Below the pieces are notes generated by a model, which saw only the letters and a program-made list of their open reading frames with translations, was not told the origin of the DNA and searched no databases. Below, in pieces: positions 23,792 to 26,744 of a stretch of DNA of 64,000 nt (positions within the stretch are counted from its first letter, which is position 1; each line of letters opens with the position of its first letter). A program made the translations under genes and the position numbers. The stretch covers positions 19,442 through 83,441 of the forward strand of contig DASYUZ010000112.1 in NCBI GenBank assembly GCA_036000665.1, read 5' to 3'. The stretch is from Gaiellaceae bacterium (GTDB lineage: Bacteria > Actinomycetota > Thermoleophilia > Gaiellales > Gaiellaceae).

Positions 23792-24181
23792 TCAGTCGCT
23801 CCACCAGCCCTGGGCCATCTCGGCGTCGCCAGGCCCGCCTGGGGCACCGATCGCGATGACCTCGGCTCCCTCGGGCCCCGCCTCGAAGCTCCGCATCGTG
23901 TCCTTGTGGACGCGCACCGCGTCCCACGGCTTTAGCTCGATGACGTCGTCGCCGACCTTCATCCGGCAGCTGCCGCCCAGGACCACGTACACCTCCTCCT
24001 GCGTCTTGTGCGTGTGTCCCCACGGAATGCGGAAATCCGGCGCGAGCCGCTGGTAGGAGATACCGATCAACTCAGCCTCGAGCGGGACCCGCGCGAAGCG
24101 CGCCTCCAAGTCGGGGGAGAGGCCGAACTTGGGGGCCTGGTCCTCGACCTCTTTCATGTTCACGACGGTGTATCCAGCCAT
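23792..24181 (-). CDS. Cupin-domain protein
   Basis: 129-aa ORF with cupin motif 1 (GHTHKTQEEVYVVLGG). Confidence 0.8.
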   Translation of the reverse strand: MAGYTVVNMKEVEDQAPKFGLSPDLEARFARVPLEAELIGISYQRLAPDFRIPWGHTHKTQEEVYVVLGGSCRMKVGDDVIELKPWDAVRVHKDTMRSFEAGPEGAEVIAIGAPGGPGDAEMAQGWWSD

Positions 24182-24203
24182 GGCGCGGATTCTGCACCCC
24201 TGC

Positions 24204-24209
24204 TACATT
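24204..24209 (+). promoter_or_regulatory. -10-like TACATT, 7 nt before the leader-peptide ATG
   Basis: TANNNT hexamer with no SD before ATG 24217. It sits back-to-back with a CAGAAT box for the divergent cupin gene. Confidence 0.45.
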
Positions 24210-24216
24210 CAGAGCA

Positions 24217-24240
24217 ATGAAGGAGCTGCTTCTTCTGTAG
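24217..24240 (+). CDS. Putative leucine-rich leader peptide MKELLLL upstream of leuS
   Basis: Reads ATG AAG GAG CTG CTT CTT CTG TAG: four consecutive Leu codons, then a stop. It lies between a -10-like box and an intrinsic terminator that precedes leuS. Confidence 0.55.
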   Translation: MKELLLL

Positions 24241-24280
24241 AACAGAGAGCCACGCGGCCTGGTCGCGGTAGCTCTCGACG

Positions 24281-24304
24281 GCCTCTCGACTGAGAGGCTT
24301 TTTT
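24281..24304 (+). terminator. Intrinsic terminator in the leuS 5' leader (attenuator)
   Basis: GCCTCTC-GACT-GAGAGGC (7-bp stem, tetraloop) followed by TTTTTT. It lies 17 nt upstream of the leuS ATG. Confidence 0.75.
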
Positions 24305-24320
24305 GTCTCCGGAGACAACG

Positions 24321-26744
24321 ATGGACAGGTACGACCCACACACAATCGAGCCGAAGTGGCAGGAGGTCTGGGAGCGTGAGCGCGCGTTCGAGGTCTCGAA
24401 CGAGCCATCGCCCTCGAAGTCGTACGTCCTCGAGCAGCTTCCCTATCCGTCGGGCTCGCTGCACATGGGGCACGTGCTCGTCTACACGATCGGCGACGTC
24501 GTCGCGCACTTCCGGCGGCGGGTCGGGATGCACGTGCTGCACCCGCAGGGCTTCGACTCCTTCGGGCTCCCGGCGGAGAACGCCGCGATCAAGGAAGGCG
24601 GGCATCCGCGCGAGATCACCGAGCGGAACATCGAGAGCATCCGCCGCTCGATGCGCAGGATCGGCTGGGCGTACGACTGGTCGCGCATGATCTCGACGCA
24701 CGAGCCGGAGTACATGCGGTGGCAGCAATGGCTCTTCCTGAGGTTCTTCGAACGCGGCCTCGCATACCGGAAGGCTGCGCCGGTGAAGTGGTGCCCGAAC
24801 GACCAGACGGTGCTCGCGAACGAGCAGGTCCGTGACGGCCGCTGCGAGCGCTGCGGCTGGGAGGTCGAGATCCGGCTGATGGAGCAGTGGTTCTTCCGGA
24901 TCACCGACTACGCGCAGGAGCTCCTCGACGACCTGGACCGGGTCGACTATCCCGAGCCTCTCAAGGCCCGCCAGCGGAACTGGATCGGCCGCTCCGAAGG
25001 CGCGGAGATCGTGTTCCGGATCGAGGAGCTGAACATCGACGTGCCGGTCTTCACGACGCGACCCGACACGCTCTACGGCGCCACCTTCTTCGTGCTCGCC
25101 CCCGAGCATGAGCTCGTGGAGCAGATCGCAGAGCGCTCGCAGCACGGTGATGAGATCCGCGAATACGTGCGCCGGGCCGCCCTGAAGAAAGCCGAGGAGC
25201 GGGCAGCCGCAGAGGAGAAGACCGGCGTCTTCACGGGCATGCACGCGGTCAACCCGGTGAACGGCGAGCAGATTCCCGTCTACATCGCGGATTACGTCCT
25301 GACCGACTACGGGACCGGGGCGATCATGGCGGTGCCGGCGCATGACGAGCGCGACTTCGCGTTCGCGCAGGCGTTCGGACTGCCCGTGCGTCAGGTCGTC
25401 CGGCCCGTGGACGGCGAGGTCGACGAAGGCACTCCGTACGTCGAGCACACGGAAGGCGAGGTGCTCGTCAACTCGGACGGCTTCGACGGACTGCCGGCGA
25501 CTGAAGGCGGAAGGCGGATCGTCGAGGGCCTCGAGGCTGAACGGCGCGGCCGGTTCGCGATCAACTATCGCCTGCGCGACTGGGGCTTCTCGCGGCAGCG
25601 CTACTGGGGCTGCCCGATCCCGGTCGTCTACTGCGAGCGCGACGGGATCGTGCCCCTCCCGGACGAAGCGCTGCCGGTACTCCTACCGGACGTCGACGAC
25701 TACCGGCCCAAGGGCAAGCCACCGCTGGCGCAGGCCGAGGACTGGGTCAACGTCACGTGCCCGAAGTGCGGCGGCCCTGCGACGCGCGAGACCGAGACGA
25801 TGGACACCTTCGTCGACTCGTCGTGGTATTTCCTGCGCTACTGCGACCCGCACAACGATCGGGCGCCGTGGGACCGCGACGTCGTCGACTACTGGAACCC
25901 CGTCGATCTGTACATCGGCGGCTCGGACCACGCGACGATGCACATGATCTACGCGCGTTTCTTCGTCAAGGTGCTGAACGACCTGGCGCTCGTCGGCTTC
26001 CGCGAGCCGTTCGCGAAGTTCTTCACGAACGGGTGGGTGACGCTCGGGAAGACGAAGATGTCGAAGCGCGCAGGGAACGTCGTCGGCCCGGACGACTTCG
26101 TCGAGCAGTACGGGGCGGATTCCGTCCGCCTCTACATCCTCTTCATCGGTCCTGCCGACCAGGACCTGGAGTGGACCGAGGAGGGGATCGAGGGCATGTC
26201 GCGCTTCGTGCGGCGACTCTGGAGGATCGTCAACGAGGTCGCCGCAGGCGCGCCGCAAGGAGTCGAGGAGACCGGTGCGCTGACGCGGAAAGCGCACGCG
26301 GCGATCGCGAAGGCGACCGACGACATCGGCCGCCGGTTCGCGTTCAACACCGCGATCTCAGCGGTGATGGAGCTCGTGAACGAGCTCTCGCGCGAGCCGG
26401 ATGCTCCCGACGCGCGCTTCGCGGCGGAGACGGCCGTGTCGCTGATCCAGCCGTACGCGCCGCACATCGCCGAGGAGCTGTGGTCGAGGCTCGGCCACGA
26501 GCGGCTGTGGGAGCGGCCATGGCCGGTCGCCGACGAGTCGCTGCTCGCGCGCGAGACGTTCGAGCTCGTGGTGCAGGTGAACGGGAAGGTGCGCGACCGC
26601 CTCGAGGTGGCGGCGGACGCGTCGGAGGAGGAGCTCGTCGCCGCCGCGACTGCGTCGCCGCGCGTGCAGACGTACCTGGACGGCGGAAAGATCCGACAGA
26701 CGATCGTCGTGCCGCGCAAGCTCGTCAATCTCGTCGTCGGATAA
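24321..26744 (+). CDS. leuS: Leucine--tRNA ligase
   Basis: GGAGA SD precedes ATG 24321. HMGH and KMSKR class-I signatures are present. The TTG 24303 start in the ORF track lies inside the terminator T-tract and is rejected. Confidence 0.95.
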   Translation: MDRYDPHTIEPKWQEVWERERAFEVSNEPSPSKSYVLEQLPYPSGSLHMGHVLVYTIGDVVAHFRRRVGMHVLHPQGFDSFGLPAENAAIKEGGHPREITERNIESIRRSMRRIGWAYDWSRMISTHEPEYMRWQQWLFLRFFERGLAYRKAAPVKWCPNDQTVLANEQVRDGRCERCGWEVEIRLMEQWFFRITDYAQELLDDLDRVDYPEPLKARQRNWIGRSEGAEIVFRIEELNIDVPVFTTRPDTLYGATFFVLAPEHELVEQIAERSQHGDEIREYVRRAALKKAEERAAAEEKTGVFTGMHAVNPVNGEQIPVYIADYVLTDYGTGAIMAVPAHDERDFAFAQAFGLPVRQVVRPVDGEVDEGTPYVEHTEGEVLVNSDGFDGLPATEGGRRIVEGLEAERRGRFAINYRLRDWGFSRQRYWGCPIPVVYCERDGIVPLPDEALPVLLPDVDDYRPKGKPPLAQAEDWVNVTCPKCGGPATRETETMDTFVDSSWYFLRYCDPHNDRAPWDRDVVDYWNPVDLYIGGSDHATMHMIYARFFVKVLNDLALVGFREPFAKFFTNGWVTLGKTKMSKRAGNVVGPDDFVEQYGADSVRLYILFIGPADQDLEWTEEGIEGMSRFVRRLWRIVNEVAAGAPQGVEETGALTRKAHAAIAKATDDIGRRFAFNTAISAVMELVNELSREPDAPDARFAAETAVSLIQPYAPHIAEELWSRLGHERLWERPWPVADESLLARETFELVVQVNGKVRDRLEVAADASEEELVAAATASPRVQTYLDGGKIRQTIVVPRKLVNLVVG

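Follow-up and report, generated by a model that had tools for sequence, protein, structure and literature searches.

We analysed a 64,000-nucleotide (nt) stretch of DNA from a Gaiellaceae bacterium (hereafter the window) and describe here the leader of its leuS gene, a candidate leucine-sensing attenuator. The window has a G+C content of about 70%, and the closest relatives of the locus are metagenome-assembled genomes (MAGs) of Gaiellaceae and Gaiellales. leuS (24321-26744, plus strand) encodes a leucine–tRNA ligase (LeuRS) of 807 amino acids, identified by Pfam and by NCBIfam TIGR00396 (992.9 bits against a cutoff of 548.4), and the next genes on its 3' side are comEA and comEC. On the other side lies a small cupin gene (23792-24181, minus strand), divergent from leuS, so that an intergenic gap of 140 nt (24182-24320) holds the leader. 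The only tRNA gene in the window is a tRNA-Leu(CAA).

The leader, all on the plus strand, opens with an extended -10 element, TGcTACATT (24201-24209), whose hexamer TACATT (24204-24209) ends 7 nt before ATG 24217. This ATG starts a mini-open reading frame (mini-ORF; 24217-24240) with the codons ATG AAG GAG CTG CTT CTT CTG TAG, which encode MKELLLL and a stop, 81 nt upstream of leuS. No Shine-Dalgarno (SD) sequence precedes the mini-ORF start, either in the window or in the relatives described below, and across the family the start lies 7-9 nt 3' of the -10 hexamer; from this spacing and the missing SD we infer a transcription start at or 1 nt before A24217, and hence a leaderless or near-leaderless transcript.

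Downstream of the mini-ORF, both RNAfold and RNAalifold predict a helix whose outer stem (24245-24276) pairs GAGAGC (24245-24250) with GCUCUC (24271-24276) and encloses an inner GC hairpin formed by CGCGGC (24253-24258) and GUCGCG (24262-24267) around a CUG loop. A spacer of 3 nt, GAC (24277-24279), separates this upstream helix from an intrinsic terminator, GGCCTCTC-GACT-GAGAGGCT (in RNA, GGCCUCUC-GACU-GAGAGGCU; 24280-24299), with an 8-bp stem and a run of six Ts at 24299-24304. The helix and the terminator share no bases. A first-pass annotation, made from the sequence of the window, had placed the hexamer, the mini-ORF, GAGAGC, the CGCG hairpin, GCTCTC and the terminator where we find them, and an independent scan also recovered the terminator. 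The same annotation rightly set the terminator before leuS but put 17 nt between its end and the leuS ATG, where we count 16 nt between the last T of the U tract and the ATG at 24321.

Canonical hairpin-plus-U-tract terminators are essentially absent from the 60-kb segment scanned (positions 1-60000): terminator-like matches did not exceed the shuffle expectation, and the one before leuS is the only 8-bp stem followed by six Ts. The pre-leuS terminator therefore stands out, and gene ends must use other signals. As a single sequence, the leader of the window does not fold exceptionally well (z = -1.68), and the significance of the arrangement lies in its conservation rather than in its fold energy. 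The leader is absent from Rfam; at gathering thresholds and at E<=10 the only match was a chance one to Phe_leader, driven by the terminator.

A scan with one genome per species yielded 80 loci, whose LeuRS N-termini are 72-83% identical to that of the window, and we added two closer metagenome contigs with LeuRS identities of 94% and 89%. Family-wide counts below refer to an alignment of 81 Gaiellales leader sequences (A1). The full layout recurs before leuS in the 80 Gaiellales genomes and in both closer contigs. The cupin gene is a neighbour in only 7 of 82 loci, and the leader thus stays with leuS despite a differing upstream gene. An nhmmer search with the Gaiellales leader profile revealed no second copy in the window. 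A search for LeuRS homologues returned only close Gaiellales proteins (at least 76% identity) and none from other actinobacterial classes. One of these proteins, P0068 (78% identical to that of the window), is labelled Candidatus Rokuibacteriota at NCBI among otherwise Gaiellaceae matches, and its contig is probably mis-binned.

Conservation begins at the promoter: all 81 leaders share the T, the A and the final T of the -10 hexamer, and 78 keep the G of the upstream TG. An intact in-frame ORF of the form M-x(2-3)-L-L-x-stop, 6-7 codons long (6 in most relatives), is likewise present in 78 of the 81. It starts with ATG in 34 leaders and GTG in 35, and ends with TAG in 69, TGA in 6 and TAA in 6, never with TGG. 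The two Leu codons common to the family correspond to CTT CTT at 24229-24234 in the window; the first is CTT in 62 leaders, CTG in 11 and CTC in 6, and the second is CTT in 65 and CTC in 15, which makes the second sensor codon always CUY. Apart from two decayed copies, codon positions 1 and 2 are invariant at both sites, while the third positions have undergone 33-34 synonymous changes, and the remaining residues of the peptide vary freely. Of these changes, the 17-18 from U to G or U to C at the first wobble position would disrupt any pairing of that base, so the constraint acts on coding and not on RNA pairing. A single tRNA, tRNA-Leu(GAG), normally decodes CUU as well as CUC.

The choice of codon is equally distinctive. 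The first-pass annotation had expected CTT to be rare without measuring it, and CTT indeed accounts for 3.8% of Leu codons in the window (31 long ORFs, 15,183 codons); the 5' parts of leuS in the 80 relatives give 2.9%. About 80% of sensor codons are CTT, an enrichment of more than 20-fold over the genomic 3-4%. The two closest contigs encode MKKQLLL and MNNLLLV, each followed by a stop, with CTC CTC as sensor codons. The intact ORFs, the alternating start and stop codons, the wobble-only variation, the enrichment in CTT and the invariant -10 element together lend strong comparative support to the reading first proposed in the annotation, in which a leaderless mini-ORF of Leu codons and a terminator act as a leucine-sensing attenuator of leuS; judged on such sequence evidence, it is likely that this is a Leu-codon leader-peptide attenuator.

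Some leaders depart from this pattern. In two of them (L035:1841-1956 and L047:2368-2483) the promoter, helix and terminator are kept while both Leu codons (MERRSP, then a stop) or one of them (MKRRLT, then a stop) have been lost; these are natural 'sensor-dead' variants. In another, L014 (L014:2380-2495), the ORF is one base out of frame relative to that of a close relative, L008 (2380-2495), reading GTGAGCAGCAG against GTGAGCAAGCAG; this frameshift reflects either decay of the copy or an erroneous indel in a MAG built from long reads.

The variants without Leu codons bear on whether the leader senses anything. It could be a constitutive leaky attenuator that damps a strong promoter, or its roughly 88-nt RNA or hexapeptide could be a trans-acting product, with the Leu codons incidental; there is a precedent, as outlined for Sinorhizobium, in the attenuator-derived small RNA rnTrpL and the leader peptide peTrpL, which have functions in trans. 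Such an account would fit the two family members that do without Leu codons and the formation of the terminator in all modelled states (see below). It would not explain why Leu-Leu is kept in 78 of 81 leaders with only synonymous variation while other residues are free, why two leader families that look unrelated both use codons cognate to the gene downstream (the second family, from Streptomyces, is introduced below), or why the geometry of stall site, stop and stem is conserved in both, and we regard it as unlikely.

At the level of RNA structure, the outer stem is supported by covariation, with 5 of 7 pairs changing on both sides and none of 500 shuffles matching the observed value. Its pairing is also better between cognate arms than between non-cognate ones (p=0). 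The inner 6-bp GC hairpin is strongly conserved around a variable loop of 3-4 nt. The terminator is nearly invariant family-wide and its arms also show a cognate advantage; its conservation was scored by explicit pair counts, as RNAalifold run on A1 missed it. Only these three elements, the outer stem, the inner hairpin and the terminator, have support as helices of the leader. The upstream helix has a stability of -19.2 kcal/mol in the window and a family median of -22.6 kcal/mol; the terminator reaches -13.8 kcal/mol in the window, and values of about -14 to -15 kcal/mol make it moderately strong. Spacing is tightly kept as well. The stop codon lies 4 nt from the first stem pair in 77 of 81 leaders, stem and terminator are 5 alignment positions apart in 64, and in minimum free energy (MFE) structures the unpaired stretch between helix and terminator measures 2 nt in 47 leaders and 3 nt in 22; it is shorter (0-1 nt) in 9 and longer (4 nt) in 3.

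We then modelled ribosomes on the leader by masking a footprint that extends 15 nt beyond the first P-site base, following standard toeprint geometry. For a ribosome with the stop codon in its A site, the footprint reaches 24235+15 = 24250 and takes in precisely the outer-stem 5' arm, while a ribosome awaiting Leu-tRNA at the two CUU codons ends at 24241-24244, flush with the stem and outside it. The outer stem is therefore what differs between the modelled ribosome positions. The terminator, by contrast, is part of the MFE structure in all 81 leaders with a ribosome at either Leu codon and in 80 of 81 with a ribosome at the stop.

Alternative pairings were assessed by column contingency tables, by duplex energies against shuffles and by comparing cognate with non-cognate arms. 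Across the 81 leaders, no conserved or covarying alternative partner was found for either terminator arm, and an all-against-all column covariation scan returned nothing besides the outer stem. Pairing of the ORF with the stem 5' arm was no better than composition and showed no cognate advantage, and neither the GUUCCC segment that follows the U tract, as a partner of the stem 5' arm, nor the terminator 5' arm, as a partner of the ORF, gave a pairing that beat composition or covaried.

A trp-type attenuator would require, on stalling, that the stem 5' arm (24245-24250) pair with the terminator 5' arm (24283-24287), or the stem 3' arm with the terminator 3' arm. The GAGAG and CUCUC repeats of the window do permit a 5-bp alternative of this kind, with a duplex of -10.7 kcal/mol between the two 5' arms. 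Family-wide, however, that duplex carries A.C mismatches in 20-31 of 81 leaders because the stem covaries while the terminator stays unchanged, and its median energy of -7.0 kcal/mol compares with -8.4 kcal/mol for shuffled sequences (p=0.98 for cognate advantage). The pairing of the two 3' arms has a median of -7.5 against -6.6 kcal/mol for shuffles and again no cognate advantage (p=0.99). With energies at the level of composition, a terminator that persists in every stalled-ribosome model and Streptomyces-type leaders that are unable to form such a pairing, a trp-type switch is very unlikely. The same results leave without support the 1:3 and 2:4 pairings that the first-pass annotation had listed, in keeping with its own failure to derive a classical antiterminator model, whereas its 1:2 pairing, GAGAGC with GCTCTC, is the one that covaries.

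One further complementarity exists in Gaiellales. The ORF RNA AAGCAGCUUCUU (24219-24237; A1 columns 31-46) is complementary to the terminator 3' arm and U tract (24290-24304; columns 108-123), and the duplex beats composition, at -11.3 against -7.3 kcal/mol for shuffles, without covariation. Such a duplex might bring the two ends of the terminated leader RNA together, or contribute to read-through while no ribosome occupies the ORF. Taken as the switch itself, it would give the leader a reverse, translation-reporting logic, in which free ORF RNA prevents termination and any ribosome on the ORF, including a Leu-stalled one, permits it, so that leuS would go up if the leader were cleared fast or left untranslated. 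A terminator-free fold is at least as stable in 18 of 81 leaders (median difference +3.7 kcal/mol), but in the window it is 8.4 kcal/mol worse. Moreover, the pairing shows no cognate advantage (p=0.66), is absent from Streptomyces-type leaders (-9.5 against -10.4 kcal/mol shuffled) and is weak in the two closest contigs; kinetically, the local hairpin of the terminator should prevail. That a housekeeping synthetase would be under positive feedback is also physiologically implausible, and the Leu-specific codons would be left unexplained. We consider this logic distinctly unlikely.

The leader might also dispense with translation altogether. leuS is T-box-regulated in Firmicutes, and the first-pass annotation had pointed to UGGU (24260-24263) in the hairpin as a possible partner of a tRNA ACCA end. 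In a minimal T-box-like riboswitch, the ACCA end of uncharged tRNA-Leu would pair with this loop, and perhaps the anticodon with CUU, to give an antiterminator. However, UGGU is found in the window only, and half of it falls within the hairpin stem; the loop, CUGGU in the window, reads AGGCC in the first of the two closest contigs (94% LeuRS identity) and ACCGC in the second (89%), and it varies in length and sequence family-wide. An Rfam search of 24100-24400 gave no T-box match at E<=10. The leader, only about 88 nt long, has no stem I, specifier loop or bulged antiterminator, and a T-box would leave the coding signature of the ORF unexplained. The comparison contradicts this alternative, which is extremely unlikely.

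Leaders of a comparable kind have been reported in Streptomyces. In S. coelicolor and S. avermitilis, leuS was predicted to be preceded by Leu-ORF attenuators (Seliverstov et al. 2005, PMC1262725), and RNA-seq of S. lividans identified a leaderless leuL2 transcript that encodes MRAVRLLLSEPR and then a stop, followed by a hairpin and a U stretch (Droste et al. 2021, PMC8079986). Back-translation of this leuL2 peptide led us to 22 Streptomyces-type loci in metagenomes; leuS was confirmed as the downstream gene in the one locus checked. In these leaders TACCCT lies 6 nt before the ATG and the Leu codons are CUU CUG CUU. The 5' arm of an 11-bp helix consists of the last ORF codons and the stop, and the helix encloses a variable, covarying hairpin. 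The terminator starts 0 unpaired nt after the helix in 18 of 21 leaders and stays in the MFE structure whichever ribosome state is modelled. With a ribosome at the first Leu codon, the footprint stops 1 nt short of the helix; with a ribosome at the stop, it includes the helix 5' arm. A motif around the -10 element, GGTACCCT, is common to some Gaiellales leaders (L034, L047, L064) and the Streptomyces-type ones (L083-L104), which may be chance within the TAnnnT consensus.

The two families thus share leuS as downstream gene, a -10 element a few nt before an SD-less start, a CUU-rich Leu run, a long helix that encloses a variable hairpin and has its 5' arm under the modelled footprint of a ribosome at the stop but clear of one waiting at the first Leu codon, and a canonical terminator that abuts the helix without sharing a strand with it. 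They differ in ORF length (12 codons in Streptomyces, 6-7 in Gaiellales) and in the helix-terminator spacer (0 nt against 2-3 nt in 69 of 81 leaders). The helix 5' arm lies inside the last ORF codons and stop in Streptomyces, whereas in Gaiellales it begins wholly past the stop, 4 nt downstream, so that no ribosome could open the stem except one positioned on the stop codon. An nhmmer profile of the 81 Gaiellales leaders found no similarity at E<=10 to the 22 Streptomyces-type loci, and membership of the Gaiellales leader in the Streptomyces leuL2 type is one of architecture and function, not of demonstrated descent. The kind is therefore already known from Streptomyces leuS, and the Gaiellales leader is a new, very compact example of it.

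Taken together, these data indicate that the leader probably senses charged tRNA-Leu and attenuates leuS transcription by way of the ribosome. In the model we propose, transcription would begin at or next to the ATG of the 7-codon mini-ORF, and because the mini-ORF has no SD, ribosomes would load on the 5' end of the transcript. The sensor would be the two CUY-type Leu codons, mostly the rare CUU, just before the stop. When Leu-tRNA is plentiful, a ribosome would reach the stop and its footprint would cover the outer stem 5' arm, holding the stem open; the RNA upstream of the terminator would then be slack, the terminator would fold in the RNA polymerase exit channel and transcription would end. 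When Leu-tRNA is scarce, a ribosome would halt at the CUU codons with its edge short of the stem, and the helix would form; it would form likewise on an untranslated leader, which would make read-through the default.

For a synthetase, homeostasis means that low charging calls for more enzyme, as in the pheST attenuator and in T-boxes, and the state in which the helix is formed should therefore be the read-through state. How a formed helix would achieve this is a more tentative part of the model. The helix would abut the terminator and exceed it in stability, with a 70S ribosome flush against its base, and would sterically hinder completion of the terminator stem in the polymerase ('tug-of-war' antitermination), so that leuS is transcribed; it would also keep the Leu-stalled 70S particle tethered only a few nt away from the terminator stem. 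The upstream helix is the more stable of the two, at -22.6 against -15.0 kcal/mol in Gaiellales and -34.1 against -13.5 kcal/mol in Streptomyces-type leaders.

This steric mechanism draws on recent work in which structures directly upstream of terminators suppressed termination in a spacer-dependent manner (Bushhouse, Fu & Lucks 2026, bioRxiv 10.64898/2026.06.17.733018). Lengthening the spacer from 0 to 4 nt progressively weakens the effect, relative stabilities matter as well, and the authors read it as steric competition for the polymerase exit channel (bioRxiv 10.64898/2026.06.17.733018). Tug-of-war riboswitches share with the Gaiellales leader a stable, non-overlapping structure, a short spacer (0-4 nt) to the terminator and an outcome decided by relative stability; they differ in that a ligand stabilises their aptamer, whereas the effector proposed here is where a translating ribosome sits, by which a plain helix is either opened or left intact.

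Several observations weigh against this proposal. In the same study, simple hairpins barely affected strong terminators, and spacers of up to 4 nt shifted strong terminators towards 'always OFF' (bioRxiv 10.64898/2026.06.17.733018). With a spacer of 2-3 nt and a moderately strong terminator, the Gaiellales helix alone may not be enough, and any contribution of the stalled ribosome to blocking the terminator is speculation. Folding gives the switch no direct support, since helix and terminator coexist in every modelled free-RNA state. The ribosome-free ORF can pair with the terminator 3' arm in Gaiellales, which would give the opposite logic, and the two family members without Leu codons retain the remaining leader elements. 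On balance, we hold the steric abutting-helix mechanism to be possible, at somewhat less than even chances.

The attenuators of E. coli trp, leu and pheST/pheM resemble the Gaiellales leader in having a short ORF with cognate rare or sensitive codons, a terminator before the gene and a ribosome at the stop codon that masks the next segment. They differ in three respects. Their antiterminator shares a strand with the terminator, whereas none is shared here; an untranslated leader forms the 1:2 hairpin and terminates, whereas read-through is the predicted default in Gaiellales; and their ORFs have an SD and 14 or more codons, whereas the Gaiellales ORF is predicted to be leaderless and has 6-7 codons. 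The leuS T-boxes of Firmicutes and the actinobacterial ileS T-box also control a synthetase gene by tRNA charging through a terminator or ribosome-binding-site structure, but they bind tRNA without translation, and the Gaiellales leader has none of their defining motifs. Leaderless short-ORF attenuators, including some before tRNA synthetase genes, have been described in Deinococcus deserti (PMC4007540). These, together with mycobacterial Cys-responsive short ORFs (bioRxiv 10.1101/834739), likewise have a 5'-terminal AUG or GUG and encode a short peptide rich in the relevant amino acid, in other lineages and with other amino acids and downstream structures.

Our results extend leader-peptide control of an aminoacyl-tRNA synthetase, in its probable form, to Gaiellales (class Thermoleophilia), a deep actinobacterial order rich in uncultured members, and the comparative support is unusually clean. 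The leader could become an Rfam family, and the mini-ORF deserves annotation in Gaiellales genomes. Neither the Gaiellales leaders nor the Streptomyces-type leuS leaders that we recovered with the S. lividans leuL2 peptide hold an overlapping antiterminator. This lack and the possible tug-of-war are the more novel point. Tentatively, and with rather less confidence than in the attenuator itself, the leuS leaders of Gaiellales and Streptomyces might constitute a class of attenuators without an overlapping antiterminator, in which an abutting helix, reinforced by the Leu-stalled 70S ribosome, blocks the terminator sterically and the ribosome at the stop codon only unzips the helix. Were this the case, no leader peptide known to gate transcription would be smaller than the 6-codon Gaiellales one, and its untranslated default would be ON, in contrast to superattenuation of the trp type. 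Ribosome position would then stand beside ligands among the inputs of non-overlapping antitermination, and leader-peptide searches that demand overlapping hairpins would miss a class of attenuators.

Lastly, the sequence between the U tract and leuS shows some variation among clades. In the window, the leuS SD, GGAG (24311-24314, plus strand), lies inside a palindrome, UUGUCUCCGGAGACAA (24303-24318), right after the U tract, which could form a 6-bp hairpin that takes in part of the SD. The palindrome is kept in the subclade of the window only, being present in its two closest relatives (GTCTCTGGAGAC) and absent from the main clade, and it may add a weak extra layer of translational control of leuS. 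In most of the loci L007-L080, the start given by tblastn is preceded by another ATG in the same frame, four codons (~12 nt) earlier, for example near position 2489 in L053. In the main clade this ATG occurs in the context GGAGACGA ATG AGn nnn GGC G ATG GA, at an SD spacing equal to that of the leuS start in the window. The upstream ATG is probably the real leuS start in the main clade, which would place the ribosome-binding site of leuS directly 3' of the U tract in every member of the family.

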